A stretch of DNA of 64,000 nt from positions 87,361 through 151,360 of the forward strand of contig JASLXV010000032.1 in the NCBI GenBank assembly GCA_030740155.1, in the 5' to 3' direction. How positions within the stretch are numbered: position 1 is the stretch's first letter; every line of letters starts with the position of its first letter. This DNA comes from Dehalococcoidia bacterium (GTDB lineage Bacteria > Chloroflexota > Dehalococcoidia > Lucifugimonadales > UBA3495). The notes beneath the pieces were generated by a model that saw only the letters and a list, made by a program, of their open reading frames with translations, did no database searches and was not told the origin of the DNA. Below, one piece after another: positions 6,353-23,003 of this stretch. The position numbers and the translations under genes were made by a program.

Positions 6353-6985
6353 TCAGTCCCGGCCGCCGCCGGAGCCGTCGCCGCCGCCAGTGCCGCCGCC
6401 GGAGCCGCTGCCGGTTCCACGGGCAGGCTCCGCGGCCAGCAATTCGTCCAGGGCCGCCCGCAACGAGGCGGCGTTCATCGGCCCCACGAATTTCTTCACC
6501 AAAAGCCCGCCGCCGTCGATGAGGAATTTCTCCGGAATACCCCTGACGCCATAGTCGATGGCGATGGTCCCCCTGGCGTCGATGCCGTTGGGGTAGGTGA
6601 CGCCGTAACGCTCCAGGTAGGCCTCGGCGTCATCCCTGCGGTCCCAGATGTCGACGCCGATGAATTCAACGCCTCGATTCCGGTATTCCAGGTATGCCTG
6701 GGCCAGGATTGGGGCCTCCTTGCGGCAAGGGGGGCACCAAGACGCCCAGAAATCAAAGAGCAGGACGTGGCCCCGCAGGCTGGACAGGGTCACCGTGGAG
6801 CCGTCGAGCAACTCCAGGGAGAACTCTGGGGCGGCGTCACGATCGACCTGGATTTCGCCGTAAGCATTGTTGACTCCCAGGCCGCCCGGGCTGCCGCCCG
6901 ACTCGACCAACGCCCAGGCCAGCAGCGCAATCAATCCCAACACCGGGATTGAGGAGCCCAGCAATATCCAGCCTCGTTTGCTCAA
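6353..6985 (-). CDS. Membrane-anchored TlpA/ResA/CcmG-like thiol-disulfide oxidoreductase
   Basis: N-terminal TM helix, FWASWCPPC, YGV.GIPE; last gene of the ccm cluster; TTG start overlaps the upstream TGA. Confidence 0.88.
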   Translation of the reverse strand: MSKRGWILLGSSIPVLGLIALLAWALVESGGSPGGLGVNNAYGEIQVDRDAAPEFSLELLDGSTVTLSSLRGHVLLFDFWASWCPPCRKEAPILAQAYLEYRNRGVEFIGVDIWDRRDDAEAYLERYGVTYPNGIDARGTIAIDYGVRGIPEKFLIDGGGLLVKKFVGPMNAASLRAALDELLAAEPARGTGSGSGGGTGGGDGSGGGRD

Positions 6986-8265
6986 CTCTCCAACTCACTC
7001 TCTTTGCCGTCTGGCCGCTCCCGTTCTCCCGGCGGCGCTTGATCCTCCCCGCCCTTGGGCTGAGGAGTCTCCAATATCCGGTTCTTCAGCCGGTCTCGCT
7101 GGGGCCGGTATTCCTCCTCCGGCAGGTCCCCTCGCTGGAACCCCTCGTCGAGGGCCGCTATCTCGTGGATCAGGGAGGCTCGCTGTGGCGGCTCCCGGCC
7201 GATCCCCTCGGGGGCGGCTGCCACGGAGGGAACGGCCCTCCGCGAAGCGCCGGTTATCCCGAGCAGCAACAGGATGGCCAGGACCGCGCCGGCGGCCCCA
7301 GGCACGGCCGCCCGCCAGAGGGCGGCACTGCTGGCCGATTTGCCGAGACGCGTCGCCAGACCGGGCTCGGGAAGGTTCGACAGCTCCAGGACCAGGTCCT
7401 GGCCGATCTGGAAATCCCTACCCTGCCAGACCCGGTAGAAGGACCCTTCGATGTTTACCGTTGGGGCCGGTTCCAGAGGAGCGACCTGGATCGAAGCCAT
7501 CTGCTCGGGCACCAGCACCTGGAATAGGGCCGATCCCTGGATAAAGCTCTGCCGGTAGGAGGCCCGGTCACCCCGGTAGGAAAAGCGGAAAGAGAAGTCG
7601 ACCGCGTGTTCTCCGGGGACCACGGCTGAATCGATGGCGAATCCGGTGCCGGTGGGCAGGATATCTCCACCGGGCAGGTCCGACTGCACGCTGAGGTCCT
7701 CGGCCAGGGGCGGCAGCGAGAAGCCCAGGAAGCCCTCCCCCCCCACCTCCACGGGACCGGGCAGGAAGGTGCGGTCGCTCGGGTTTTTCAGTCTCACGAA
7801 CTCGAAGGCCGATATCTCCCGGTTCTTCTCATCTACACCGGCGATCAGCAGGGCCTGGAGGCTCACCGTCAGGACTGACGGGTCCTGGGTCGTCTCGTAC
7901 ACGGTGAGCCGGACCTCATCAACCAGTTCATTCGGGCCCAGCTCCTCGGTATAGAACACTCCTTGGTAGTCTACGCTGAGGAGGTAGCGCCCTCCTTCCA
8001 GCAGGGGCACCTGGTCGAAACGAAAGCTGGCGCCATCGCCGATCGTCGTCTGGTCCGCCGTTCTCAGGTTTCCCGCCTGGTCGGAGGCCAGCAGGAATAC
8101 CGGGAGGTCCGGAGGGGTTGCCGCGCCGCTGGTGCCGTTGGACACTGTTCCTTGGATCGTGATCGTTTCCTGGGCGTTGCTCGTGTCCGGACCTCCCGCC
8201 GCGAGGGCCAGGGTCAGAGCCGTGATCAGCACGGCCAGCCGTATGCCCAACCGCCGGCCCCTCAT
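6982..8265 (-). CDS. Exported membrane-anchored protein (signal peptide, beta-rich domains, C-terminal TM and helical tail) in the cytochrome c maturation cluster
   Basis: Likely start ATG 8265 (MRGRRLGIRLAVLITALTLALAAGG) in an ATGA overlap with the upstream stop; C-terminal LDEGFQRGDLPEEEY resembles CcmI-like helices. Confidence 0.65.
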   Translation of the reverse strand: MRGRRLGIRLAVLITALTLALAAGGPDTSNAQETITIQGTVSNGTSGAATPPDLPVFLLASDQAGNLRTADQTTIGDGASFRFDQVPLLEGGRYLLSVDYQGVFYTEELGPNELVDEVRLTVYETTQDPSVLTVSLQALLIAGVDEKNREISAFEFVRLKNPSDRTFLPGPVEVGGEGFLGFSLPPLAEDLSVQSDLPGGDILPTGTGFAIDSAVVPGEHAVDFSFRFSYRGDRASYRQSFIQGSALFQVLVPEQMASIQVAPLEPAPTVNIEGSFYRVWQGRDFQIGQDLVLELSNLPEPGLATRLGKSASSAALWRAAVPGAAGAVLAILLLLGITGASRRAVPSVAAAPEGIGREPPQRASLIHEIAALDEGFQRGDLPEEEYRPQRDRLKNRILETPQPKGGEDQAPPGERERPDGKESELES

Positions 8266-8708
8266 GCTGAAGCTGGATCCGAGGGGCCGGACTTTTCGCC
8301 GCACTCGGGGCAGGCGCCGCTGCCCGGCGCCGAAGCCGCTCCGCAGCCGGGACAAGGGCGTGAGATTCCACCGGATCCCCATAGTTCCGACCGGGCTGCC
8401 AGTACTTCCTGCTCCAACGCCCAGTCGGGATCGCTTTCCCGCTCCTTCACCACTTGCCGCAGCGCGGTGGCGGCCTGGAGGCGGTAACCCTGAAGCTGTT
8501 CCCGGTATAGCTGGTCCGGCACCTGCCCCAACTCGTGCTCCAGCCGCAGGATGCGAATGGCCTCGTAAATGGCCTCCAACTCCGGCGCTTCCTGATCCAC
8601 TGCAACCACCGGACCCTCACCCCAATTCCTCGAACGAGACTTGAGGAACGGGAAGGCCACTATGGCAACGCTGAACACGGCCAGGGCAGCGCCCAATACC
8701 AATCCCAT
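8262..8708 (-). CDS. CcmI-N-like membrane protein with C-terminal zinc ribbon
   Basis: N-terminal TM, L.LEHELGQV....Y helix, CPGC..CPEC. Confidence 0.7.
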   Translation of the reverse strand: MGLVLGAALAVFSVAIVAFPFLKSRSRNWGEGPVVAVDQEAPELEAIYEAIRILRLEHELGQVPDQLYREQLQGYRLQAATALRQVVKERESDPDWALEQEVLAARSELWGSGGISRPCPGCGAASAPGSGACPECGEKSGPSDPASA

Positions 8709-8885
8709 GCTGTTAGCCTGCTTTCACTATCGAATGTTGAGCGGTCAGTAACTAGCTTTCAGCTGTCAGCCCTTTTCTGGCCGAAGGCGGCCGAACGGCA
8801 ATACGCGAGAGAGGGCCTCCCGCTGTAACGCCGGCCGTCCCACCGGCCTTCAACCTGGCGGCCGACCGCTGCTCACCTGCGAGCC

Positions 8886-10883
8886 TCACGCCGTGGTGGG
8901 CCTGGTGGCCGCCGGGACTCGCCCCGGTGCGGGCTCCCGGGACGGCGCCCGGCGGCGCTGGGGCCATAGCGCGACCACGGTGCCCGCCACGAGCACCGGT
9001 CCCGCCACCCACATCCACCAGATGAGCGGGTTCACCAGGACCCGGAACCCAACCATTCCGTTGGAGAGGTTCTCACTGGGAACCACGTACAGGTCCTCCA
9101 CCGGAGTCGACCGGATGGCGGCCCGAGTCGACGCCATGCTGAAGGCGGGGTAGAAGGCCCGGGCCGGCCGCATGATCGTCAACAGCTTGCCGTCCCGGTA
9201 GACCTCGACTTCGGACACAAACTCGGTGCGATTACCCTTTTCCTCTTCCTGCGTGCCCAGGTACCGTAGCTCGTACTCCGCAATGGTCAAGCTATCGCCG
9301 GGGGCCAGCACCGCGTCTCGCTGGGTGTTGAAAAATGTGGTGCCGACGATGCCCAGCGCCAGCATTACCACCGATAGATGGACGATGTACCCGCCATACC
9401 GGGGCCGGTTGGCCGCGAGGAGACGGAAGAACGCCGTTGGGTAGCTCTCCCCAGACGAGCGGTGCCTGACACGAGTACCCCGGGACCACTCCAGAAGTAT
9501 GCCGGCGGTCACCAGCGCTCCCAGACCGAATCCCGTGAGCGGGTACGCCTGCCGCACGCCCAGGGCCAGCAGCAGCACCACCAACGCCACGGCGATGAGG
9601 CCGGGCAGGAGCAGTGCCCGGCGGACGCTGGCCGGGGTCGCCCGGCGCCAGGGCAGCAGGGGGCCCACCCCCATCAAGAAAAGCAGGCCCAGCAGCAGCG
9701 GCCCGTTCACCTGGTCGTAGAAGGGGCGGGCCACGGTGATCTCCTCGCCGATGGCCAGGCGGGATAGCAAAGGGTAGACAGTGCCCCAGAGGGTGACGAA
9801 GGCGATGGCCAGCAACAGGAAGTTATTGACCAGGAAGGCCGCCTCGCGGGACAGCATCGAGTCAAGTTTCTGGGCACTCTTGAGCAGCGGATAGCGCCAG
9901 AAGAAGACGGCGAAGGGCACCAGCACGCCCACGGCCAAGAAGACGAGGAAGATCCACCCCAGGGTGGAGGCCCCGAAGGAGTGCACCGAGGCGACCTGAC
10001 CGCCCCGGTTCATGAACATGCCGTACAGGGCCATGCCGAAGGACACGTTAATCAGCACGATATTCCACATCCGGAACATCCCCCGCCGCTTTTGCACCAT
10101 GATGGAGTGGACGAATGCGGTCAGGGCCAGCCAGGGCATCAGTCCCGCGTTTTCCACCGGGTCCCAGAACCAGAACCCGCCCCATCCCAGAATGGTGTAG
10201 GCCCACCAGGAGCCCAGCAGCAGGCCGCTCGCCAGCAAGACCCAGGACACGATCCCCCACAAGCGGCCCTGGTCCACCCACTCGTCCCCGCTCTTGCCGC
10301 CTAATTGGGAGCCCAGGGCGAAGGCGAAGGGCAAGGTGATGCCGATCAGGCCGGCCATCAGGGCTGGGGGATGGAAGAACATGCCCACATGGGTCAGCAG
10401 CGGGTTGAGGCCCTCGCCGTCGGCCGGGATGAAGGGCAGCTTTTCGAAGGGGTTCGCCATGAACGCCGTCACCGCCAGGAAGAACGCCAGAACCAGCATC
10501 AAGATCGCGGTGGTGTAGGGCAGGGTGTCGCGGACTTTCACCGGCGCCCGCCAGATGGCGATGCCCGACATCGCCGACAGCACGAAGGCGATGAAGAGCA
10601 GCGACCCCTCGTTGCCGGCGTAGAACGCCACCCAGGTGAAGCGGCCGGCCATCGCCAGATCGCTGTGGCGGGCCACGTAGGCTATCTCGAAGTCCCGGTT
10701 GATGAATGCCGACACCAGGCTGAGGGTCGCCACCAGGAGCACCAGGACCGTCAGGTATGCGGCACTTCGGGAACTCTGGATCAGGACTGGAACACCCCGG
10801 ACCTGGCCCACCAAAGACCCAATGGCGGCGTAGGCCGAGAGAGCCAGCGCCAGCAGTAAGCAGATTGCGCCTAGATCAGCCAT
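8886..10883 (-). CDS. ccmF: Cytochrome c-type biogenesis heme lyase CcmF
   Basis: GNEGSLL, GLNPLL, HPP, the WWD motif (WAYTILGWGGFWFWDPVEN) and SVHSF. Confidence 0.95.
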   Translation of the reverse strand: MADLGAICLLLALALSAYAAIGSLVGQVRGVPVLIQSSRSAAYLTVLVLLVATLSLVSAFINRDFEIAYVARHSDLAMAGRFTWVAFYAGNEGSLLFIAFVLSAMSGIAIWRAPVKVRDTLPYTTAILMLVLAFFLAVTAFMANPFEKLPFIPADGEGLNPLLTHVGMFFHPPALMAGLIGITLPFAFALGSQLGGKSGDEWVDQGRLWGIVSWVLLASGLLLGSWWAYTILGWGGFWFWDPVENAGLMPWLALTAFVHSIMVQKRRGMFRMWNIVLINVSFGMALYGMFMNRGGQVASVHSFGASTLGWIFLVFLAVGVLVPFAVFFWRYPLLKSAQKLDSMLSREAAFLVNNFLLLAIAFVTLWGTVYPLLSRLAIGEEITVARPFYDQVNGPLLLGLLFLMGVGPLLPWRRATPASVRRALLLPGLIAVALVVLLLALGVRQAYPLTGFGLGALVTAGILLEWSRGTRVRHRSSGESYPTAFFRLLAANRPRYGGYIVHLSVVMLALGIVGTTFFNTQRDAVLAPGDSLTIAEYELRYLGTQEEEKGNRTEFVSEVEVYRDGKLLTIMRPARAFYPAFSMASTRAAIRSTPVEDLYVVPSENLSNGMVGFRVLVNPLIWWMWVAGPVLVAGTVVALWPQRRRAPSREPAPGRVPAATRPTTA

Positions 10884-10934
10884 GGGGAATGAAGCCTGCC
10901 TCCTTTTTGGCCTGCCAGACCGGCGAAGCCGCGG

Positions 10935-11573
10935 CTAGCGCTCGCCTTCCGGTTGAGAATCTTCGCCCCGAAGGGGTCCTACGCCGCCGGCGCCCGGGTT
11001 GGATGCAACTTGGGTCTCGCCGCCACTCTCGGACATCATGGAGGCCGGCCGGCGCCCGGAGGGTCCTTCGCCGTTCAGCAGGCCCAGGTCCCGGTCTACG
11101 GTCTCCAGGAAAGGCTCCAGGCCGTCTTCCGGTGACGGCCCGGCAGCGGGCTTTCCACCACCGCCGGCCGCCATCGACCGGAGAATCGCCAGCGCGCCCA
11201 CCAGCGCCGCCACGACCCCGGCCACGGGCAAGATCCAGGCCAGCAGGTTAACGCCGGACTTGGGTGGGGCGGCCAAGACACCGGGCCCGTAACGGTCGAC
11301 GAAGAAGTCCAGGATTTTAGCGCGGCTGGAGCCATGGGACAGCATCTCCCGTACCACTCCGCGCATCTGCCGGGCCAACTCCACCTGGGCCTGGTCGATG
11401 GTCTCGGCCGGGCAAACCGGGCACATCAGGCTCCGGTCGATGGCCTGGGCTTCTTCCTCGTCGTAGGGCAGGACCTGGGCCAGGGCGGTGCCTCCGCTCA
11501 GCAGCAACACCGGGAGCAGCCCCGCGATAAGCGCCAGGGACCTAGGCCAGTTGGATGGCAATCGAATGCCCAT
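10935..11573 (-). CDS. ccmH: Cytochrome c-type biogenesis protein CcmH
   Basis: LMCPVC..ETI, A.QMR, FV.RYG..VL..P followed by a TM; start placed at MGIRLP (11573). Confidence 0.88.
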   Translation of the reverse strand: MGIRLPSNWPRSLALIAGLLPVLLLSGGTALAQVLPYDEEEAQAIDRSLMCPVCPAETIDQAQVELARQMRGVVREMLSHGSSRAKILDFFVDRYGPGVLAAPPKSGVNLLAWILPVAGVVAALVGALAILRSMAAGGGGKPAAGPSPEDGLEPFLETVDRDLGLLNGEGPSGRRPASMMSESGGETQVASNPGAGGVGPLRGEDSQPEGER

Positions 11574-12145
11574 ATACCAGTCCCAGTTGGGGGTCTCGGC
11601 GGGCCGGGCGGTCCCCCGGGTTCTTGACGGAGACCGGCGACGCGGGCCGGTGGTTGAGGAATGGGGTCCGGGCTTGAGCCTCCCTTCCCGGTCGGCCATG
11701 GAGCCGGACCAGGACACCCTGCGTCGGCTCCCCTTGGCGGTGGGACAACGGCGAGGGCAAGGTGGAGGGAAAACCCGTCTCCCAATCGACCGGCGTCCCG
11801 TGGCAGTGGAGGCCACGGGCTTCAAGCCCGCTGAAGTCTGGCGTTGGCGTGGCGGGTGGTGGGCTCAAAATCCCTTGAAGTCGGAGGCAGCAACCCGGCT
11901 TGCGGAAATCATCAGGAGTAGCTGGTTCATTGCTGCTGTTGAGGATCGATGATGTGCTTCGCCGCGGCTCTGAGGCCCGACGACGCGGGACACCACCACT
12001 CCGCTAAGGATAAACCCCTCGATGCCCCGATTGTCAATGGCCGTGTACGTGCGGCGTAGGGACAACCGGGGCGTGGCTTACTCGAGACAGCGCCGTCACC
12101 GGTGCCCGTCTTGAGACCCCGGTATTCTCCCACGGCCAGACGGCG

Positions 12146-13126
12146 TTACGGGGTAACCACGAAGTCTCCGAACATGGTGAAGTTGTGTCCGGGGAATGTA
12201 CACACGAACTGGTAGGTGCCCGCCGCGGGGGCGTCGAAGCTGACATCTCCCGTGGCGCCCGCGTTTAGCACCTTGGTGTTGGCGATAACGTCGGCGTCGC
12301 CGGGCTGTACCCAGTCGTTGCCGGGACCGGCCGCGGTGCCTCGGGAGGAAACGGCGTCTTTCGTCCCGGCTTTCACGATCACCACGTTATGCTGATTGAT
12401 GCCGGAGACGTTATCGAAGCTCAGGACCACCTCGCTGCCGGCGGCGACCTCTAAAGCGTCTTTGTCGAACTGGAGCGCGTCCCCGTTGACGCTGATCTCC
12501 AGGGTGCCGGCCGCTGATGAGTCATCGGGCGGCTGTGTCGGCGGAGGTGTGGCCTCTGGGGTCGCGGTCTCGCCAGCCGCACCGGTCATACCTGCCGACG
12601 TCGGGGCCAGCGTGCTGGTGATGTATTCGACAATGGCGGTTTGTTCGCCAGCGGTCAGCAGCTTGCTGAAGTTCGGCATCGCGACAACGCCGGAGCGCAT
12701 GAAGCCCAGGATGCCTCCGGGGCCGATGGCCTTGGCCTGGTCGGAGGTCAGGTCCGGGCTGACGGCGGCCTCGTAGCCGTAGGAGTTGACCAGCGTTTGC
12801 AGCACCGGCCCGTCGCCCTGGCCGGTCAGGCCGTGGCACATCGAGCAGTTGACCATGTACAGGTGCCGCCCGTCGGTGAACGACGTGGATTCAGGACCGG
12901 GATACCAGGCCACGGAACTCGCCGGCGCACTCAACCGGGGTGGCTCGTGAGACTTGTAGGTCTGCTGGTAGTGCATCTCGTAGAAGATGTCCAGGGGATA
13001 GGCCCCCTGGCTGCACCCGGCGGCTACCAGGCCCAACAAGAGAGCCAGGCCGAATAGGTAGCCCCGGACCCTTCGACGGCCGGCGCTACGGGGTTGATTC
13101 GGTTGTGTCGTTCGCTGATTGCTCAT
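12146..13126 (-). CDS. actE: ActE-like monoheme cytochrome c lipoprotein fused to a C-terminal auracyanin/azurin-like cupredoxin
   Basis: Lipobox VAAG-C, EMHYQ, CSMCH, AMP axial Met; T/P/A-rich linker; HNVVIV and CTFPGH..M type-1 copper ligands. Confidence 0.85.
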   Translation of the reverse strand: MSNQRTTQPNQPRSAGRRRVRGYLFGLALLLGLVAAGCSQGAYPLDIFYEMHYQQTYKSHEPPRLSAPASSVAWYPGPESTSFTDGRHLYMVNCSMCHGLTGQGDGPVLQTLVNSYGYEAAVSPDLTSDQAKAIGPGGILGFMRSGVVAMPNFSKLLTAGEQTAIVEYITSTLAPTSAGMTGAAGETATPEATPPPTQPPDDSSAAGTLEISVNGDALQFDKDALEVAAGSEVVLSFDNVSGINQHNVVIVKAGTKDAVSSRGTAAGPGNDWVQPGDADVIANTKVLNAGATGDVSFDAPAAGTYQFVCTFPGHNFTMFGDFVVTP

Positions 13127-13140
13127 TCCCGTGTGAATCC

Positions 13141-13650
13141 CTAGGTTTCCCGTACCACGTCTACGGCACCCGCTTGGGTAAGTATGCCGGACACCTGCGG
13201 CAGCTGTTCCTCTTCGGCGTTAACTAGGACGCCGATGTAGCCCTCGGTGATGCGGGTGTCGTACAGGCCAAGCTTAAACTTGGGCAACCGGAACTCGAAG
13301 ATAATCCCGAGCACGGTGAACATTATGGCGCCCAGCATGGTGGTCTCGTAGGTTACCACCGCCATCGGTGGGAGGGATAGGATGGGCTTGCCCCCCTGCA
13401 CCAGGGGGTAGGCCATCTGGGTCATGGAGGTCAGGATGATACCCGCCGTCAATCCGATCAACGCGCCGACAAAGGGGAAGATGTACAGCCGGTGGGGCTC
13501 AGGCCGTTCCCCGAAAGCCCCTTCCGGGTAGGGGGCGTCGGTCAGGAAGTCGTAATCATTGGGCGATATGTTCGCAGCCTGCAGGGCATCCCCCGCTTCG
13601 GCAGCGTAGTTTGCATCTTCAAAGAGCCCCAGTATCGGCCGTCTCGCCAT
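13141..13650 (-). CDS. actD: Alternative complex III subunit ActD (DUF3341-like)
   Basis: Two TMs with YPLVQGGKP..S.P...V..YE.T motif; operon position. Confidence 0.85.
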   Translation of the reverse strand: MARRPILGLFEDANYAAEAGDALQAANISPNDYDFLTDAPYPEGAFGERPEPHRLYIFPFVGALIGLTAGIILTSMTQMAYPLVQGGKPILSLPPMAVVTYETTMLGAIMFTVLGIIFEFRLPKFKLGLYDTRITEGYIGVLVNAEEEQLPQVSGILTQAGAVDVVRET

Positions 13651-13719: not shown

Positions 13720-15111
13720 TTAATCCTCTCGAAATACCGCGGGCACGGTCCGGCGCCCAATCTTGAACTCGGTCTTCAGGATGTCCCCTTCTTTTATGTC
13801 GTAAAGCGGTATCAGCGGGACCACTTTGCTCAGCAGCAGGACCAGCATGGCCACCATGGCGAAGGTCGCTCCGATGATGACGGCCTCTACCCAGGTGGGG
13901 CGGTAGGTGTACCAGTCGAAGGAGAACATCTGCTTCTGCGCCAGTCCGGGCACGAAAATCAGGAACCTCTCCAGCCACATGCCGATGTTAACCGCGATGC
14001 AGGCGATTGACATAATCCACAGGTTGCGGCGGGCGCCCTTGTTCAGCCACAGACTCACCGGCAGGAAGTAGGTCAGTATCACAAAGGCGATCATCCACAG
14101 GTTCCAGGGCGGCTGGGTAAACTGGAAGCTGCGCAGCGCGATCTCGTCAGCCTCCCGCCCGTAGAACCCGAAAACCACTTCCATCACGAAGAAGTAGAAC
14201 CAGCCGGTGGCCACCACTATCAGCAAGCGTCCCAGGGCGTCGATGTGCTCGTGGCGGATGTAAGACTGCCACCCGTAGGCCCAGCGCAGCAGTATCATCA
14301 CGAAGGTAACCGCCGAGACTCCCGAGTGGACGGCGCCCACCACGAAGTAGGGGGCGAAGATTGTCGAGTGCCACGACTTGACCGACACGGCCATGCCGAA
14401 GTCCCAGGAGACTATGCTGTGGACCGACACGAACACCGGCAGTATCAGCGCCGACAGCAGCACTCCCGCGATAATCTGAAGCTTCCATTGGCGCGGGTTG
14501 CCCTGCCAGCCCATGGCCAGCACCCCGTATATCTTGTGGCTGATCCCGGTGGTGCGGTCTCGAAGCACCGCCAGGTCGGGGAGCAGCGCGACCATAACGA
14601 ACAGGATGCTGGAGGTCAGGTAGGTGAATATGGCGCTGGGGTCCCACACCAGGGGCGACCGGATGTTGGGCCATACCCCGCGGGCGATGTCGTAGGGAAC
14701 GAAGGGCACGGTGTAGACCCAGTAGACCAGGCGCCAGGGACGACCGCTGTGAATCAGCGGCATCAGCACCGCGGTCATCAGCGAGAAGACTGTGAGCACT
14801 TCGGCAGCCCGGGTGGCCGGCCTCCGCCACTCGGCCTTGGAGAGCCGTAGGATGGCGGACAGCATAACGCCCGCATGGCTGATACCGATCCAGAAGACGA
14901 AGTTGGTGATGAAGAATCCCCACATCACCGGCCGGTTCAGCCCGGTCACTCCCAGGCCGCGGTTGATCATGTAGCCTGTGGCGCCCAGGGCGATCAGGAC
15001 GATCATACCCAGGATGGCGATCGTAAACCAGAACCACTTGGGCGTGAACAGGATCGATCGCAGTAGGTCCGCGTTAACCTGTTTTGCCGATAGGACTCTA
15101 CCTTCCTGCAT
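13720..15111 (-). CDS. actC: Alternative complex III quinol-binding subunit ActC (NrfD/PsrC family)
   Basis: WGFFITNFVFWIGISHAG, IHSGRPW, PN.RSPLVWD, SVHSIVSWDF and WHSTIFAPYFV motifs. Confidence 0.92.
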   Translation of the reverse strand: MQEGRVLSAKQVNADLLRSILFTPKWFWFTIAILGMIVLIALGATGYMINRGLGVTGLNRPVMWGFFITNFVFWIGISHAGVMLSAILRLSKAEWRRPATRAAEVLTVFSLMTAVLMPLIHSGRPWRLVYWVYTVPFVPYDIARGVWPNIRSPLVWDPSAIFTYLTSSILFVMVALLPDLAVLRDRTTGISHKIYGVLAMGWQGNPRQWKLQIIAGVLLSALILPVFVSVHSIVSWDFGMAVSVKSWHSTIFAPYFVVGAVHSGVSAVTFVMILLRWAYGWQSYIRHEHIDALGRLLIVVATGWFYFFVMEVVFGFYGREADEIALRSFQFTQPPWNLWMIAFVILTYFLPVSLWLNKGARRNLWIMSIACIAVNIGMWLERFLIFVPGLAQKQMFSFDWYTYRPTWVEAVIIGATFAMVAMLVLLLSKVVPLIPLYDIKEGDILKTEFKIGRRTVPAVFRED

Positions 15112-15214: not shown

Positions 15215-16621
15215 CTATTCAGGTTTGGCCAACACCAGGTAGTGGCCGCGTATAAAGGTGCCCATCCGCTGATACATGGTGCCCTCTTTGACCTCCCAAG
15301 TGGAGAGAATCGGTATCAGCCGCGTTGCCGCTAGGTAGAACAGGGCAGCTCCTCCTATCCCGCCCAGGATCATGAACACGTCCCAAACGTCGGGCCAGAC
15401 TGCCGCGGGCACGTGGGACAACCCCAGGTTGTATATGTCCCCCGCATTGAACGACCCGACGAAGGTCCGGATGTTGAAAAGTAAAGCTCCCACCAGGGCG
15501 GACAGGCCGGCCAGCGGCGCTCCCCAAGCTCTCCGGCGCACCGGGTTCCACAGCAGGATCAAGAGGGGCAGGGCGAAGCTGAATATGAAATTGGCCAAGA
15601 ACACCCAGCCGTAGGCCTCGAAGAACAGGTACTTGAGGATGTTCTGCTCTACCTCCAGGCGGCCAAACCAGTAGGTCACGCCGAAGGCGAAGACCATGTA
15701 GCACCACAGCAGGGTGAAACCCAGGAGTATCTTGCTGGCCGACCAGAAGGGCGACACGCCGATGTACTCCTGGTAGCCTCCCCAGCGGCGCAGAATGAAC
15801 AGTATCACCAGGATCATGCCCAGGGATGACTGAAAGCTGGTGAGCGTGTATATGACCGGGAAAATCGAGTCTTTCCAGCCCGGTATCAGGCTCTGGCCGA
15901 ACTCCGTGCTGATGATGAAGTGGATGTAAAGCAGGAACATGAAGTAGAACCCGCCCAGCATGGCCAGCGCGGCCTTCTGGGTGATCCACTGCCGCTTGGT
16001 GCCGTACCAGTGTCCCGCCAGGAGCGAGTACACCTTCCGGCGAAGCCCGGTGGACGACAGCCGGGCCTCCGCCATGTCGGGCATCGCGGAGAACCACAGG
16101 ATGGCCAGGCCCAGAATGGCCAGGAAGATCACGCCCAGCAGGTCCCACACGTAGGGAGCGCCGACGGGCACTTCAAACCAGAGGGTGCGGCGTACCTCCA
16201 TCTGCTCGGGCCCGGAGCCGGGGTTCTTGATGGGTGGCATCACCAGCATCAACGGGATGAACATCAGGAGGGTGAAGATGCTCACCACGGAGAACAGCTC
16301 CGCTATTCGCGAGAGGGGGCGTCTCCAGTGGCTCTTGGTGAACCGGAAAGCGACCGCCGCCAACGGAGCGGTTCCGGTAACCATGAATACAAACGAGAAG
16401 ACGGCGGCGTAGTAGCCCCAGGGCCCATGCTCGCTGAAACCATCATCGATGACCCGGACGATGAAGCCGGTGATCCCCAACACGAGCAGCATGGCCGAGA
16501 TGGTCATGGCGATCGCCAACCGGTCGGGCAGGACGAAGGTCTTGCCCAACAGGTCCTTGGTTACCTTGTTCGCCTCGGGGAAGACCCATACTCCGGCGTT
16601 ATGATGTCCGTTAACCGCCAT
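15215..16621 (-). CDS. Second NrfD-family membrane subunit (ActF-like)
   Basis: About 10 TMs; WRRPLSRIAE and PGWKDSIFP are paralogous to ActC, but the HxGRP and SPLVWD quinol-site motifs are missing. Confidence 0.75.
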   Translation of the reverse strand: MAVNGHHNAGVWVFPEANKVTKDLLGKTFVLPDRLAIAMTISAMLLVLGITGFIVRVIDDGFSEHGPWGYYAAVFSFVFMVTGTAPLAAVAFRFTKSHWRRPLSRIAELFSVVSIFTLLMFIPLMLVMPPIKNPGSGPEQMEVRRTLWFEVPVGAPYVWDLLGVIFLAILGLAILWFSAMPDMAEARLSSTGLRRKVYSLLAGHWYGTKRQWITQKAALAMLGGFYFMFLLYIHFIISTEFGQSLIPGWKDSIFPVIYTLTSFQSSLGMILVILFILRRWGGYQEYIGVSPFWSASKILLGFTLLWCYMVFAFGVTYWFGRLEVEQNILKYLFFEAYGWVFLANFIFSFALPLLILLWNPVRRRAWGAPLAGLSALVGALLFNIRTFVGSFNAGDIYNLGLSHVPAAVWPDVWDVFMILGGIGGAALFYLAATRLIPILSTWEVKEGTMYQRMGTFIRGHYLVLAKPE

Positions 16622-17420
16622 GGGCGTTATCCTTGCTCAAAGGAAATTGATCGACCTTCTTCAGGTATATGACGTTGGGTTTGGTGCCCATCTCTTCCAG
16701 CAGACGGTAAACCCGGGTATCGCCCGGATCCAAATGCTCTCCCCTCTTCCGGGCTTCGATCTGCTCGTTGGCCTCCTTGAAGCGCTCGTGGACCGGCCCG
16801 GTAATGTCCCCCTGGTCGGCGAAGGTCAACGCGTTGGTGGGGCAGGCCGCGACGCAGGCGGGCAGAAGGTTGAGTTCCGCCATCGCCGCATGGTCCAGCG
16901 TCCTCCGTTCCCGTCTCTCTACCGTTATTTCGGCCCGGCGGATCCGTTGGATGCAGAAGGTGCATTTCTCCATGATGCCGCGGCTTCGCACGGTGATGTC
17001 GCTGTTCAGTTGGTGTCTCATCCGTTCCGGCCACACCGGCTCCCACCAGTTGAAGAACCGGGCCTGATAGGTGCAGTTGTTGGCACAGTAGCGGGTGCCG
17101 ACGCACCGGTTGTAGACTTGAACGTTGAGCCCTTCATCATTGTGGTAGGTGGCGTACACCGGGCACACCGGTTCGCACGGGGCGTTCTCGCAGTGCTGGC
17201 ACATTATCGGAATGAAACGGGCCTTTACGTTGGGGAACTCCCCTTCCCAGTACCGCTCGATGCGGATCCACTCGAAGGACCTGCCCTTCTGGAAGTAGTC
17301 CCTTATGTTGATGGGCAGGTTGTTCTCCGCCTGGCACGACACCACGCAGGCTTGGCACCCGGTACATTGGTCCAGGTCCACAACCATGCCCCATTTGTGA
17401 TCGATCCTAGGTGTAACCAT
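16611..17420 (-). CDS. ACIII iron-sulfur subunit (ActB2/QrcC-like)
   Basis: CTGCQACVVSC, CQHCENAPCEPVCP, CVGTRYCANNC and EKCTFC...CVAACP. Confidence 0.92.
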   Translation of the reverse strand: MVTPRIDHKWGMVVDLDQCTGCQACVVSCQAENNLPINIRDYFQKGRSFEWIRIERYWEGEFPNVKARFIPIMCQHCENAPCEPVCPVYATYHNDEGLNVQVYNRCVGTRYCANNCTYQARFFNWWEPVWPERMRHQLNSDITVRSRGIMEKCTFCIQRIRRAEITVERRERRTLDHAAMAELNLLPACVAACPTNALTFADQGDITGPVHERFKEANEQIEARKRGEHLDPGDTRVYRLLEEMGTKPNVIYLKKVDQFPLSKDNAHGG

Positions 17421-17511: not shown

Positions 17512-19818
17512 CTACTCAGGCGCGATGGTATGAATAATCCGCTCACCGTGGGTATTGCCTACTTCCACCGCCCGGACAATTCCCTCGAACTTGGCTATCT
17601 TAACCCTTTCTCCCGTGGGGGTCACGGTCACCCGGGTATTGGCCCACGCCAGCGCCCCGGTCCCGTCAACCTGGCTCGGCTCCAAGATGTCCATGATGTT
17701 CGCGCTTTCTTCCTCGGGCCGGTCCGTGGCGTACTCGGACCCGTTGCGGCGACCCTGGCCAAGGGGCACGGAGATCGTGCCGGGGGGCACTGCCGGAGTC
17801 AGGTACACCATCGCCCGGATGGAGCCCTTGGAAGACTCGATGCGGACGACGTCGCCTTCCTTGACCTTCAGCCCTTTGGCGTCATGATCGCTGATCTCCA
17901 CCCAGGTCTGCCAGGCGACGGTCGACAGCGGGTCGGGCGTCCCCTGAAGCCAGGGCAGGTGGGCATGGCGGCCGTCCAACAGCGTGTTATGGGCGAAGGG
18001 CGTCAGGTAGAACGTGCCGGCGCCCAGGCCCTTGCCGGGGAACTGGGGCTCCGCCGCCTTGTCCGCGATGCCGCCGAGGAGGCCCTGTTTCGCGTTAATC
18101 GCTCCCGGTCCGGCGGTCCCTTCGTCCCACCAGCCGCCGCGTTGCAGCAGCCTGGTCCAGAACTCTCCGGAGGAAGCGGCCTGGATCGAACCCCGGTTGA
18201 GGGCGAAGAGGGCGTCCGAGCTTTCCTTGAGCATCTGTTGGTAGCTGGGCCAGGGCAGGCTGGCGTCCTTGCCCAGCTCCTGGGCCACGTTCAGAAGAAG
18301 GTCCGGGAAGCTCCGGGGGTCCAAATCATGGAGAGGGTTGACCACCGGTTGCTGGAACCCGACGACTTCGTAGCCCGGACCCGGCTCCGGGATGTCGGTG
18401 CCCCAGTCCTCGAGATACACCCGGTCGGGCAGGACCAGGTCCGCCATGATGCTGGTCTCGTCCAGGAAGGGCGAGAAGCTGACGATGAACAGGTCGCTGG
18501 CACCGGCGATGGCGTCCTTCAATCCGAGGGAGGCGGGCAGGCCGTGGACCGGGTCCGCTTGATGCAGCAGCAACAGCTTGGTGGCGCCGGTCCGCAGGCT
18601 ATCGACTTCGGTTCTCCACTGGGACAAGGTGGCCGTTTCTCCGGCCGCCGGCGCCTCATCCAGGGGGCTGTTGGGATTGAACCTGATGCCACCCTTGGCG
18701 CCCACGCTTCCCACCAGGTAGTTGAGGGCGTAGATGGCCTCCAGGTTGAACAGGCCGTTTGTGTGGGCCCCCGCCGATCCTCCGCCGATGGCCAGGCTGG
18801 GGCTCCCACCGGCGAACTCCCGGGCCAAGCTGCGGATGGTGTCGACGCGAGCCTGGTCTCCGATGATCTCGGCGAGGAAAACCTTGTCGGCAACGACCTC
18901 GGGCCGGAAGGCTTCGAGTGCCGCTGCTCCCTTGCCGCCGGTCAAGGCCCCGACGTTCACGCCATCTGCCTGCAGGCCCTCGGAGATGATGACGTAGGCT
19001 AGGCTCAGGGCCAGGTGTCCTTCCCAGCCGGGCCGGATGGGGATCCACCGGTCGGCGTTCGCCGCCGTCATGGAGAAACGGGGGTCGACGTGATAGAAGG
19101 TCCCTCGCTTCCGCCCCTCTCCCTGGCGGAACTGGCCGTAGCCCTGGTTCCAGCGGGTGGGTGACACCCAGGTGGAGAGGAAATCGGCGCCGAAGGTCAG
19201 CAGGAACCCGGCGTTTTCGATGTCGAAGTCGGGCAGCAGGTCCTGGCCGAAGACGTTCTTGACCGCGGTGCGGTAGGTGTTGTCGTCCAACGCCTCGAAG
19301 CCAAGGTGCCGTCCACCCACTTCCTTGGAAAAGCGGCTGACCACGGTAGCCAGGTGACCGCGCAGGGGCTCGGTAACCGCCAGCATCCCAGCGCCCCGTT
19401 CGTCCAACTTCTGCCGGAGGGTGTCCATGGCGCTGGCCCAAGAGACCGGCGTGAACTGGCCGGAACCTCGGGGCCCGCTGCTCTGCATGGGACCGGCGAC
19501 CCGGTCCGGATGGTACAGAGCCTGGAGGCCGGCGTCGCACCGGGCGCTCTGCTTCCCCAGGTTAATGGGGTAGAGGGGGTTGCCCTGGATCTTCTTAGCC
19601 CGGCCTTCCATCACCCGAACCAGGATGCCCTCTCCGGTTGGGCAATTGCGGCAGAGGGTCGCGTACCAGTTATCGGACCCCTTTACCAGGTCTTCGGGCA
19701 GCATTGCCGGGCTCTGAATATCCAGTTCCCCGTGACGGATTCCAAATCCTTCACAGGCTACCGCCCCAACGGCGGAGATACCGGCCCACGCTAGAAAGTT
19801 GCGCCGCGTCAGTTTCAT
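17512..19818 (-). CDS. Molybdopterin-oxidoreductase-fold subunit (ActB1/QrcB-like), Tat-exported lipoprotein
   Basis: TRRNFL Tat motif, AVA-C lipobox, GNP.YPIN.G, GADFL.TW, LYHPDR; N-terminal Fe-S motif is degenerate. Confidence 0.88.
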   Translation of the reverse strand: MKLTRRNFLAWAGISAVGAVACEGFGIRHGELDIQSPAMLPEDLVKGSDNWYATLCRNCPTGEGILVRVMEGRAKKIQGNPLYPINLGKQSARCDAGLQALYHPDRVAGPMQSSGPRGSGQFTPVSWASAMDTLRQKLDERGAGMLAVTEPLRGHLATVVSRFSKEVGGRHLGFEALDDNTYRTAVKNVFGQDLLPDFDIENAGFLLTFGADFLSTWVSPTRWNQGYGQFRQGEGRKRGTFYHVDPRFSMTAANADRWIPIRPGWEGHLALSLAYVIISEGLQADGVNVGALTGGKGAAALEAFRPEVVADKVFLAEIIGDQARVDTIRSLAREFAGGSPSLAIGGGSAGAHTNGLFNLEAIYALNYLVGSVGAKGGIRFNPNSPLDEAPAAGETATLSQWRTEVDSLRTGATKLLLLHQADPVHGLPASLGLKDAIAGASDLFIVSFSPFLDETSIMADLVLPDRVYLEDWGTDIPEPGPGYEVVGFQQPVVNPLHDLDPRSFPDLLLNVAQELGKDASLPWPSYQQMLKESSDALFALNRGSIQAASSGEFWTRLLQRGGWWDEGTAGPGAINAKQGLLGGIADKAAEPQFPGKGLGAGTFYLTPFAHNTLLDGRHAHLPWLQGTPDPLSTVAWQTWVEISDHDAKGLKVKEGDVVRIESSKGSIRAMVYLTPAVPPGTISVPLGQGRRNGSEYATDRPEEESANIMDILEPSQVDGTGALAWANTRVTVTPTGERVKIAKFEGIVRAVEVGNTHGERIIHTIAPE

Positions 19819-19840: not shown

Positions 19841-20482
19841 TCACTTGTGGCACACCGTGCAATCGGTGGGGACGTTGTTCTGCCGGTGGCAGTCCAGGCA
19901 CGTGCCCATCTTCAGCGATTGGAACCGCTTGGGTTTGACCTTGGTCATGGCGGCCACGTCGCCGTGGCACGTGGAGCAGACCGCCTGCACTTTCTGTTCG
20001 CTGGGGAGGTCCGACGTATCCTGCTGAGTGAAGAACCGGATGTGGGCCTCATGGACGAAGCGCACGTGGTCGGGCATCCGGTGCACCCGTTCCCAGTTGA
20101 TGGGATCGCCGTCAGCGAAGCTCTGGCTGACCTTGGCCATCTCCGCCAGGTTCACGTTGGTCAGGCCCACCAGATTCTCGTCGGCGATCTGTTCGTGGCA
20201 GAACATACACTGCTCCACCGCGGGTACGGTGGCGGCGGTGCCCTTGGTCACGTTCCGGTGGCAAAATTCGCACTGGATGCCCGCTCCACCTGTCTCGACA
20301 GTTCCCGCGTGGACCGTGTGGGGGAAGGCCACGGGCTGAGCCGGAGCGTTCCCCAGGCCGAAGGGCGGGTTGGAAAACCAGGAAATGAGCACCACGACGA
20401 TCACGAAGCCGACTATGAGCGTAACTCCGGCGCTCACCACGCCCAACGCCAGCATCTTTCCGCTCAGTCCCATCGGCAGCAA
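19841..20482 (-). CDS. actA: Pentaheme cytochrome c ActA/QrcA-like
   Basis: N-terminal TM; five CxxCH motifs (CEFCH, CMFCH, CSTCH, CLDCH, CTVCH); QPVAFPH..H and W.RVH..PDHV.F.H..H. Confidence 0.92.
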   Translation of the reverse strand: MLPMGLSGKMLALGVVSAGVTLIVGFVIVVVLISWFSNPPFGLGNAPAQPVAFPHTVHAGTVETGGAGIQCEFCHRNVTKGTAATVPAVEQCMFCHEQIADENLVGLTNVNLAEMAKVSQSFADGDPINWERVHRMPDHVRFVHEAHIRFFTQQDTSDLPSEQKVQAVCSTCHGDVAAMTKVKPKRFQSLKMGTCLDCHRQNNVPTDCTVCHK

Positions 20483-20581: not shown

Positions 20582-20878
20582 CTAAATCAAGTACCGGTCC
20601 CAGAAATTGTCCACTTCCAGCGTTTGGTCGATACCCAGGACCAGAATGGTGACAGCGACGAGCAACACCAGAAACGCGAACCCGGTCAGCGGAACTCTGA
20701 ACCGGTGGGCCGTCTGAGGTAGTTGGCCGGTCATTATCAGGGATGGTATCAGCGCGTGGGCGACCAGCATCGTAATCGCGAACGTGACGATCAAAGGAAC
20801 ATAAGTCCAGAACAACTGAAGCCAAATATGGATGTCGTTCCAATTGGCGTTGGTCAACGCTTTGGGATCGTCAAACAT
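20582..20878 (-). CDS. Small two-TM membrane protein, first gene of the ACIII operon
   Basis: MFDDPKALTN.. with two hydrophobic segments, downstream of the promoter at 20943-20971. Confidence 0.6.
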   Translation of the reverse strand: MFDDPKALTNANWNDIHIWLQLFWTYVPLIVTFAITMLVAHALIPSLIMTGQLPQTAHRFRVPLTGFAFLVLLVAVTILVLGIDQTLEVDNFWDRYLI

Positions 20879-21153: not shown

Positions 21154-21251
21154 ACAACTCCGGGATTGGGTTGCGGAATTGGGGTATGGAACTTCTCGCT
21201 AGAATCCGGGCACGGTCTTTTCGGGCCGTTCACCTGGGAGGGAAGGAAAAC

Positions 21252-23003
21252 ATGGGTTGGTTCTCTATACTCAAGATCGGCAAGCGCAAGTCGCGGCCGG
21301 ATCCTCCGGAGGATGACTCGGGCGAATTTGAAATTGAACTGGATGCGACTACCGCAGACACCCCATCTCCGTTGGTGGACGAAATCGGCAGTATTGAGAC
21401 TGCCGCCGGGGGATCGCCGTCGAGCGGGGAACCTGATTTGGGAGGGCCGCCGGAGGATGAACCGGAGGATGAAGATGAGGATGAGGATGAAGAAACGGTG
21501 ACGGCAGGATCTGATCAGGAGCCGCCAGCGGCGGGATCGCTGGCTTCCAGGACTCCAAATCCAAACCTACCGCAAATGTACAAGACGTGGGTTGAGCTTG
21601 AAGAAACTATAGGCACGGCCCGAGACGGGATGGAATCGATGCTCGCCAACCGAAATATGGCGTCGGCATCGAGAGAGGTGGCCCGGGAGACTCTGGAACA
21701 GGCCGAAGCGGCCTGGGAAGAGGCCCGGCGTCTGGGAGACGTGACCTGGCGGGCCTTTGACCAGGGTTTCACCGCTAACCTGCCCGGCATCGCGGAACGG
21801 TTGAGGACCATCAAAGAGGTCGACGAGGCCCGAAGAGCCCAAGCTGATCTGCGATGGGCCAGCCAGGAAGCGGCCTGGAAAGAGGCCGACGGGGCCCGGC
21901 AAAAGGCCACGGCGGGGCTCCTGAAGGCGATTGCCTCCCTCGCGGCCGCGGCCGTCCAGGTAGAGGGAGATGAGGGAATCGGGCAATCTGTCCGCCTTCG
22001 CCGAATCTCTCAGAAAATCCGCATTGGAGGACTTGACGGGCGCCCAAGCCATACGCGACGAACTGGCACTTTTGGGGCAGAGGGCCCTGGACGAATTGAA
22101 GAAAGACCACCTCTCGGCAGAAGCATTTCCGGAAGTGAGAATGATGCCCAAGCCGGCCGGATCAAGGCCGGAAATCCAGGGGGAACCCGTCGCTCCTCTC
22201 CCGGCGGAGCTGGACGATTCCCCTGACGTTCCCCCCGACGTTTCCGATGAGGATGACACCCCTCCCAGCACTGGGGGAAAACGGCTGCGGCGGAAGCCTG
22301 AGACCCTCGAAAAGCCGGCTGCCGCCAAAGTGGAACCCCCGGCCCCCCCGGCGGGGGAAAACGGGGGAAGTGTCCCGGCGGCCACGGAGCGGGCCGAGGC
22401 TATAACCCCACCGAAGGTGGTGGAGGCCGGAGCAGGTCCGCCGCTGTCGGCAGCCGAGCAGCTCCGGAGGGAATTCGCGGCGGGAGCCCACCCACCCCGG
22501 TCCCCGGAAAGCGGGGCCCCGGTCTCCCCAACCGGGGGGCCGGTCACCGGGTGGAGCCGACGCAAAACGCTCCCGGAGCCGCGGCGGAAGAGCTGAGAGT
22601 AGAGATGGCGGCCCCGCGGCCCCCGGTGGCGGGTGTCCAGCAGCCGGGCGGAGTAATTCCCATGCCGGCCTCCGTCGACCCGGCCGTTTCCGAGGCTGGG
22701 GTTGCGGGACAGCCCGCTGCGGCAGCCCCCGGGCCGGAGACGTACACGGGGCGTCTCTACCTGATGTTCCCGTCAACCCTCGGGCAAGATGACATCGGGT
22801 CCGTTTGGGAGATCCTGGAGGCCGTGGCCGCGGGCAGCATCGTGGAGAACCGGCTCATTTCCAGGGAGGCCGGAATTCAGTTCACCCTCGACCTTGGCAG
22901 CAAGCTGTTTACGGTGGAGGACATGCGCAAGCGAATGCTGGGAGCCCGGCTGGAAGCGCTCGGGCTGGATCGGCTGAGGGTTGACTGGCCACGCGTCGGC
23001 TAG
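21252..23003 (+). pseudogene. Acidic, coiled-coil and Pro-rich protein with a small C-terminal globular domain, split by two apparent 1-nt deletions (pseudogene or assembly error)
   Basis: Protein-like sequence moves from ORF 21171-22226 to 21970-22596 to 22551-23003 at G-rich runs near 21965 and 22550; GGAAGGA RBS before ATG 21252. Confidence 0.6.

Follow-up and report, generated by a model that had tools for sequence, protein, structure and literature searches.

A single gene of an uncultured marine Chloroflexota bacterium (Dehalococcoidia, SAR202-like genome) joins the monohaem cytochrome c subunit ActE of a putative alternative complex III (ACIII) with an auracyanin-like cupredoxin in one polypeptide that is predicted to be lipid-anchored. 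The existence of this ActE-cupredoxin fusion, as opposed to chance or misassembly, is confirmed, and it is somewhat probable, as judged by comparative genomics, that its cupredoxin arm acts as a tethered copper shuttle from the ActE haem to the aa3 oxidase. The window is the whole stretch of DNA analysed, 64,000 nucleotides in length, to which coordinates given without a locus name refer.

Results

The fusion gene and its authenticity

12146..13126 (-), actE-cupredoxin fusion gene, 326 aa, single open frame from ATG to stop, linker bridged without indel
13013..13126 (-), signal peptide and lipobox VAAG-C38, predicted lipid anchor (sequence, conservation, model)
12611..13012 (-), ActE-like monohaem class I cytochrome c domain, C94-x2-C97-H98 (Pfam; 6f0k_E, E=3.2e-8)
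12506..12610 (-), T/P/A/S-rich linker of 35 aa (composition), predicted disordered
12149..12505 (-), predicted auracyanin-A-like type-1 copper cupredoxin with His246, Cys309, His314 and Met318 (2aan matches)

The initial annotation had described one reading frame with a lipobox, an ActE-like monohaem domain, a linker of about 35 aa and complete cupredoxin motifs, and every residue named is found in the 326-aa protein, namely VAAG-C38, EMHYQ, CSMCH (94-98) and AMP (Met150), followed by HNVVIV (His246) and CTFPGH-x3-M (Cys309, His314, Met318) in the cupredoxin. Pfam recognizes both domains above the curated cut-offs, Cytochrom_C/CBB3 at 83-172 and Copper-bind at 210-324, and on the plus strand of 12146-13126 stops are present. 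Cys38 is conserved in at least 90% of 46 fused homologues, from which an AlphaFold2 model of the fusion protein was built that has a helix at residues 15-38, a confident barrel (block pLDDT mostly 85-97) and a moderately confident haem domain. The linker (173-207) consists to 69% of T, P, A and S, as compared with 26-34% in the other three segments, has a pLDDT below 50 over 176-193 and 195-205 in the model, and is 17-37 aa long and unalignable among the homologues; it is likely flexible.

A stop or frameshift in the linker had been raised as a point to check, and in each of four public runs, from three studies, the linker is covered by one contig free of indels, the sole difference within the gene being a synonymous third position at 12650 in one run. 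Two of these four runs are RNA libraries, the contigs of which may stem from DNA and therefore provide no proof of transcription. The exact fusion protein is recorded from 17 contigs, and the metagenome sources carrying the sequence are labelled seawater, marine or plain metagenome. An assembly artefact is ruled out by the homologues of the same build, the 17 contigs and the four runs spanning the linker. No promoter or terminator above chance was found around the fusion gene.

The haem domain

The cytochrome domain carries the attributes of ActE, a lipobox cysteine, a single CxxCH and a distal methionine, encoded by a gene directly after actD, and C94, C97, H98 and M150 are invariant in 46 of 46 fused homologues, with Met150 the likely axial haem ligand by sequence. 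All four solved ActE chains are matched (E 7e-16 to 1e-10), with ActE of Rhodothermus marinus (6F0K) the closest ACIII chain; 6h5l and CcoP chains score the same or higher. The domain is accordingly assigned to ActE, as the initial annotation had it, by position at the actE place of an ACIII operon, lipobox and haem motif, the score alone fitting other class I cytochromes equally well. In many unfused ActE proteins (L014, L018, L030 and others), the C-terminus is a short tail whose two cysteines, about 9-12 residues from each other, may form a disulfide; at this position all seven fused loci have the linker instead.

The cupredoxin domain

The auracyanin type of the tail, likewise proposed from the outset, is borne out by sequence and fold. 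Auracyanin A (2aan) is the best PDB sequence match (E=3.8e-24) as well as the best fold match in a search with the model (TM 0.91 of target, rmsd 1.5 A), and auracyanins make up the top three sequence and the top two fold matches. The C-x4-H-x3-M loop is the same as in auracyanin A, Cys309 is the only cysteine of the domain, the azurin disulfide being absent, and the azurin model TIGR02695 scores 63.5 bits, below its cut-off of 105.1. Sequence, model and fold search agree on a His/Cys/His/Met set on a cupredoxin barrel, the arrangement of a type-1 copper site, which is complete in 50 of 52 ActE-fused cupredoxin domains; the tail is predicted to bind type-1 blue copper. As the cupredoxin is a C-terminal domain and not a stand-alone protein, it is named auracyanin-like.

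The same genome encodes two free lipoprotein cupredoxin paralogues, 71-75% identical to the tail, which share lipobox, P/T/A spacer and cupredoxin build with it. Gene conversion from these own free copies (75% identity) was considered and rejected, since the tree, which like all our cupredoxin trees took in Dehalococcoidia domains only, groups the tail with other ActE tails, if with weak support (80), apart from the free copies. R262 (12341-12343) and D279 (12290-12292) occur in 51 and 48 of the 52 ActE-fused cupredoxins; 70 subunit IV cupredoxins have mostly D or A at 262 and R at 279, a swapped charge pair that may represent an internal salt bridge marking lineage only.

The ACIII operon and its surroundings

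13141..13650 (-), actD (PF11821, 96.7 bits, above cut-off), stop 14 nt before the fusion gene
13720..15111 (-), actC, NrfD-type quinol-oxidising subunit (four solved ActC chains, E 7e-80 to 1e-75)
15215..16621 (-), actF-like gene for a second NrfD subunit, before actC (weak matches to ActC, 2e-13, and ActF, 2e-8, chains only)
16611..17420 (-), actB2, iron-sulfur subunit, separate gene (Fer4 domains; QrcC 225 bits, cut-off 400)
17512..19818 (-), actB1, molybdopterin-enzyme-like with twin-arginine leader (ArrA and four ActB chains matched)
19841..20482 (-), actA, pentahaem cytochrome c with five CxxCH (four of four PDB matches are ACIII ActA chains)
20582..20878 (-), conserved hydrophobic ORF of 98 aa ahead of actA (no Pfam or NCBIfam match)
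6353..11825 (-), downstream cytochrome c maturation block of ccmH, ccmF, a 148-aa ORF, a 466-aa ORF and a ResA/TlpA thioredoxin

The genes follow the order A-B1-B2-F-C-D-E. ActA and ActC match only ACIII chains in the PDB, and ActC residues H121, D157 and D237, which we take to have roles in the quinol and proton sites, align with conserved His/Asp residues of the solved chains. The actF-like product has 468 aa. ActB1 has ArrA as its best PDB match, ahead of the four ActB chains, and retains only three cysteines (C56, C59, C94) in its N-terminal cluster motif. Instead of one ActB chain there are two genes, B1 and B2, with 91 nt between them; among the best 80 of 199 related loci they are separate in all 75 that hold actB2. 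As domains B1 and B2 both occur, the operon is read as a split-ActB ACIII and not as the canonical complex, with actF before actC, an assignment drawn from gene content and homology.

The titles of 78 of these best 80 of 199 loci name Dehalococcoidia, Chloroflexota or SAR202, and 76 loci hold an actE-like gene, which actD precedes in all 76 and ccmH follows in 71. The 98-aa ORF is found in 72 of the 76 operons, the four misses being cut by contig ends, and its product is a possible accessory, lineage-specific ACIII subunit. No separate cupredoxin gene lies within the locus in any of the 69 unfused operons from the same best 80 of 199. A tandem actD duplicate before actE characterizes one subclade of these loci (20 of 76, among them L048, L050, L052 and L057; also L284). 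The 466-aa membrane-anchored ORF (6982-8382, -), for which Pfam and NCBIfam give no match, lies between ccmF and the thioredoxin gene in most related loci. At 21171-22596 (+), two low-complexity ORFs of 351 and 208 aa overlap in different frames, the second without Pfam match; they are possibly one frameshifted gene.

Spread and origin of the fusion

The domain-architecture survey suggested with the initial annotation recovers the same two-domain build, ActE with one cupredoxin, in 50 of 120 listed homologues, the 50 including two that are the window's own protein or a fragment of it and one with a decayed tail; 30 others are oxidase subunit IV with two such cupredoxins, 36 are cytochrome only, one is truncated and three are of other kinds. 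Their database names are generic, such as azurin, c-type cytochrome or plastocyanin/cytochrome c. Seven of the 76 related loci (best 80 of 199) are fused. Among 37 genomes of the family, an ActE match is present in 36, fused in seven spread over five genus groups and unfused in 29, with close unfused sisters (L036 and L041) beside fused loci (L009 and L011), so that the distribution is patchy, with four changes on the RpoB tree. For the fused haem domains, monophyly is rejected (AU p=0.003), whereas a single origin of the copper tails is not (AU p=0.25); therefore, either the tail was transferred from one ActE backbone to another or the haem domain under it was replaced.

Two further fusions join ActE to different, shorter cupredoxins, one in another family of the same order (G037, L155:5712-6752) and one in another Dehalococcoidia family (G409, L290:1846-2973), the latter being one of 16 long-frame loci read from a 400-genome sample of the class. 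Both lie directly after actD. Their tails align to the tail of the window over only 15-25 residues and each type recurs in several 90% clusters, from which we infer that ActE-cupredoxin fusions arose independently at least three times in the class. None of 20 long-frame ActE-like loci in a 400-genome phylum sample has a tail, and among 39 matches to longer ActE forms, restricted to 374-2000 aa, no cupredoxin fusion was found.

Clusters of cytochrome c with cupredoxin from Acidobacteriota and Actinomycetota in the ESM Atlas, with scores below 0.9, are leads only, and some may be caa3 subunit II. In P0083, the ActE-fusion tail loses the cupredoxin frame and the copper ligands near its end, either by decay in progress or by sequencing error.

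Tethered carriers on the oxidase

A CuA oxidase is encoded in all 37 family genomes, hence in all seven with the fusion. Its subunit IV carries, as checked with Pfam, a cytochrome c tail in 20 of the genomes, the same auracyanin-like cupredoxin in 11 and no tail in six (examples L228:1666-2643, L138:3595-4392, L128:4022-5239). Cupredoxin-tailed subunits have one or two auracyanin-like domains, and in G049 the cytochrome domain is doubled. G003, with the cytochrome, and G029, with the cupredoxin, belong to one genus and differ in exactly this tail, so that both carriers fill one slot. The haem c motif of subunit II is present in 30 of 30 tail-bearing and in none of five tail-less genomes (G027 and G025 left out). 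In G010 and G025, the gene immediately after those of the oxidase encodes a free lipoprotein cupredoxin. G037-type cupredoxin also occurs at the C-terminus of a caa3 subunit II with CuA and cytochrome c (P0275, three cluster members).

The ActE fusion is found in none of the 20 cytochrome-tail, four of the 11 copper-tail and three of the six tail-less genomes. All fused and copper-tail genomes fall within one 20-genome RpoB clade (tree without G024), and an independent-pairs test of fusion against tail, with 2-4 pairs, is not significant. Each of the seven fused genomes has at least one free cupredoxin copy; four have a subunit IV copy, and these four already carry cytochrome c on subunit II in addition to the cupredoxin on subunit IV. 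G000, G001 and G009 possess an oxidase without tethered carrier. In G023, both such a cupredoxin and an oxidase-bound cytochrome c are absent.

The genome of the window

The genome bin is 93.7% complete with 7.65% contamination. The oxidase operon is split over two contig ends (L317, C54 end; L316, C48 end), which overlap and are 88% alike (332/379); CxxCH is missing from the 256-aa subunit II, and the 69-aa subunit IV has no cytochrome c. Subunit I (L317/L316) contains a YSHPAVY motif, presumably of the A2 type. The initial annotation had remarked on the absence of photosynthesis genes from the window; in the genome, at 93.7% completeness, the photosynthetic reaction-centre gene (PF00124) was not found, nor were bc1 cytochrome b and NirK. 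A candidate for a small lipoprotein cytochrome c is encoded on C80.

An operon resembling that of nitrite/nitrate oxidoreductase (NXR; L307:744-11065, G000:C13) encodes a 1191-aa frame near NxrA of PDB 7b04 (1794 bits), beta subunit, chaperone, haem b subunits, c-type cytochromes and a bd-like membrane protein, the bd-type match of the genome lying inside it. A second NxrA-like copy is located at G000:C20:55624-57582 and a NarG at L311. The operon could be a genuine nitrite/nitrate oxidoreductase of the lineage or bin contamination; NXR-like genes are present in two of 39 genomes searched and in one of the seven fused family genomes.

Discussion

Proposed function of the copper arm

Extrapolating from solved ACIII systems, quinol would be oxidised at ActC and electrons would pass via the ActB2 cluster and the five ActA haems to the ActE haem (excerpt of PMC7439408). 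They would then be handed to the tethered copper domain, which would swing on its linker to the CuA site of the aa3 oxidase and, as comparative genomics suggests, take the place of the cytochrome c carrier between ACIII and oxidase. The contour of the 35-residue linker, about 120 A at about 3.5 A per residue, would provide enough reach to a neighbouring oxidase. The occurrence of the domain on either the donor complex or the acceptor, and its exchangeability with cytochrome c, is as expected of an ACIII-oxidase carrier. Weakening this reading of the arm as a shuttle to the oxidase are the split oxidase operon, the contamination of the bin, the restriction of all co-occurrence to one clade, the two carriers already borne by the oxidase in four of the seven fused genomes and the dispensability of ActE in Flavobacterium; moreover, the unfused majority and the carrier-less G023 imply that the copper arm is dispensable, and in the genome of the window the free paralogues or the C80 cytochrome candidate could do the carrier's job.

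The presence of free paralogues with the same lipobox, P/T/A spacer and cupredoxin build, at least one copy of which is kept in all seven fused genomes next to a subunit IV copy in four, would also suit a tail that acts as relay or anchor, a seventh redox site near ACIII which passes electrons to other membrane-tethered carriers. Recipients would be the free lipoprotein cupredoxins or the subunit IV cupredoxin or cytochrome, neighbouring complexes may reduce the tail, and the linker would be a spacer common to all these lipoprotein cupredoxins; linkers down to 17-18 aa do exist, and the R262/D279 contrast between ActE-fused and subunit IV domains would fit distinct roles. The relay is nevertheless considered rather unlikely, as the one Copper-bind match in G409 is the fused domain itself (a search that misses some copies in other genomes), three genomes including G000 have an oxidase without tethered carrier, and the charge swap perhaps reflects lineage only. 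Service to a branch to or from another extracytoplasmic enzyme such as the NXR-like molybdoenzyme, perhaps with electrons flowing backwards into the quinone pool as in Qrc, is improbable: the NXR-like gene occurs in one of seven fused and two of 39 searched genomes as against a CuA oxidase in seven of seven, NirK was not found in the genome of the window, the Qrc scores lie below cut-off, and ActC, ActD and ActA match ACIII, even though the genome does encode two proteins near NxrA of 7b04 and NarG, the separate ActB genes best match the QrcB and QrcC models, and ActE has been suggested to route electrons outside the supercomplex (excerpt of PMC8552683).

A near-neutral fusion, finally, in which the gene of a lipoprotein cupredoxin came to lie in frame after actE and its product uses no more than the lipid anchor of ActE, without any particular electron exchange with it, would explain the patchy distribution with four changes on the RpoB tree, the close unfused sisters L036 and L041 and the decayed P0083 tail without copper ligands. 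Fusion of three different cupredoxin types at the same place, copper ligands kept down to 49% identity and 69 unfused operons (best 80 of 199 loci) all lacking a cupredoxin gene of their own speak against such an accident, which we regard as very improbable. The shuttle to the aa3 oxidase thus stays the preferred reading.

Relation to known systems

Chloroflexus aurantiacus and Roseiflexus castenholzii (8K9E, 6LOD) share with the system described here pentahaem ActA, ActC, ActD and a lipid-anchored monohaem ActE, and their auracyanins (2AAN, 1OV8, 6KOL) are, like the tail, type-1 copper acceptors of the auracyanin fold, with copper predicted in the present case. Electron transfer from ACIII to auracyanin has been shown in these systems (excerpts of PMC10873879 and PMC7439408), in Roseiflexus by EPR and enzymology with cytochrome c551 as alternative acceptor (excerpt of PMC10873879), so that the acceptor role, presented in the initial annotation as only a proposal, is already established. 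There, auracyanin is a separate protein and the sink shown is the reaction centre, whereas here acceptor and ActE form one chain, a reaction centre was not found and ActB is split. According to an excerpt of PMC3150298, the Chloroflexus auraA and auraB genes are separate and distant from the ACIII operons, the auracyanin-like Caur_2581 is numbered beside the COX II gene Caur_2582, and Thermomicrobium, which is not photosynthetic, is noted to have an auracyanin gene. Auracyanin A has been proposed, rather than shown, as donor to oxidase (excerpt of PMC9316378).

An ACIII subunit with an extra tethered one-electron domain is also present in the ACIII-aa3 supercomplex of Flavobacterium johnsoniae (6BTM). 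That domain, for which shuttling between ActE and the aa3 oxidase has been proposed (excerpt of PMC8552683), contains haem c and forms the N-terminus of ActA; the present one is instead predicted to carry copper and makes up the C-terminus of ActE, next to an ActA with five haems only. The Rhodothermus marinus ACIII-caa3 system (6F0K) likewise combines pentahaem ActA with ActE as proposed donor, but bridging there falls to the haem c of oxidase subunit II, to HiPIP or to a soluble cytochrome c (excerpt of PMC8552683), whereas subunit II here lacks a haem c motif. Azurins, including the lipid-modified azurin of Neisseria (3AY2), resemble the tail in an azurin-fold type-1 copper domain behind an A/P/E-rich spacer; they match it less well than auracyanins do, have a second cysteine pair that is missing here and are not subunits of respiratory complexes. 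QrcABCD, which supplies the best NCBIfam names, similarly has its B1-like and B2-like parts in two genes that follow a multihaem cytochrome, but its scores are below the cut-offs (72.7/180, 277.6/440, 225/400, 29.8/570), and the present operon has two NrfD genes instead of one, ActD, ActE and an ActC very near to that of ACIII.

The fusion had been put forward as evidence for the link of ActE and auracyanin, and this evidence has become stronger than claimed, since relatives carry the domain on subunit IV of the oxidase as well and ActE is fused to two further cupredoxin types elsewhere. The initial annotation knew of no description of the fusion, and none was found in the full-text literature covered, mostly open-access and including an excerpt of PMC5826079; its novelty is narrower than this implies, as a tethered carrier on ACIII has a precedent (excerpt of PMC8552683). 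Transfer from ACIII to auracyanin and a carrier tethered to ACIII are hence known in principle, and, in the mostly open-access literature covered, the architectures of ActE with copper and of subunit IV with copper or cytochrome are new, no paper having been found on the subunit IV tails.

The exit step of ACIII is unsettled, as ActE was held to contain the last haem, yet in Flavobacterium its deletion left oxidase activity and ActE is dispensable for transfer from ACIII to aa3 (excerpt of PMC8552683). A natural single-chain ActE-cupredoxin of about 290 aa would turn a transient encounter into a measurable haem-to-copper transfer and a trappable structure.

In respiration, the alternation of cytochrome c and cupredoxin on subunit IV parallels the swap between plastocyanin and cytochrome c6. 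It is possible, though doubtful, that a marine SAR202-like Dehalococcoidia clade rewired its aerobic respiration to copper, with arms on ActE and subunit IV replacing cytochrome c in copper-to-copper transfer within a supercomplex, with no haem between ActE and CuA in the genome of the window and with at least three fusions in the class. As it stands, the fusion is real, conserved and well supported by comparative genomics and would extend the known wiring of ACIII, and auracyanin-type carriers would extend from photosynthesis to a marine heterotroph lineage, for which, speculatively, copper in place of haem iron could matter.
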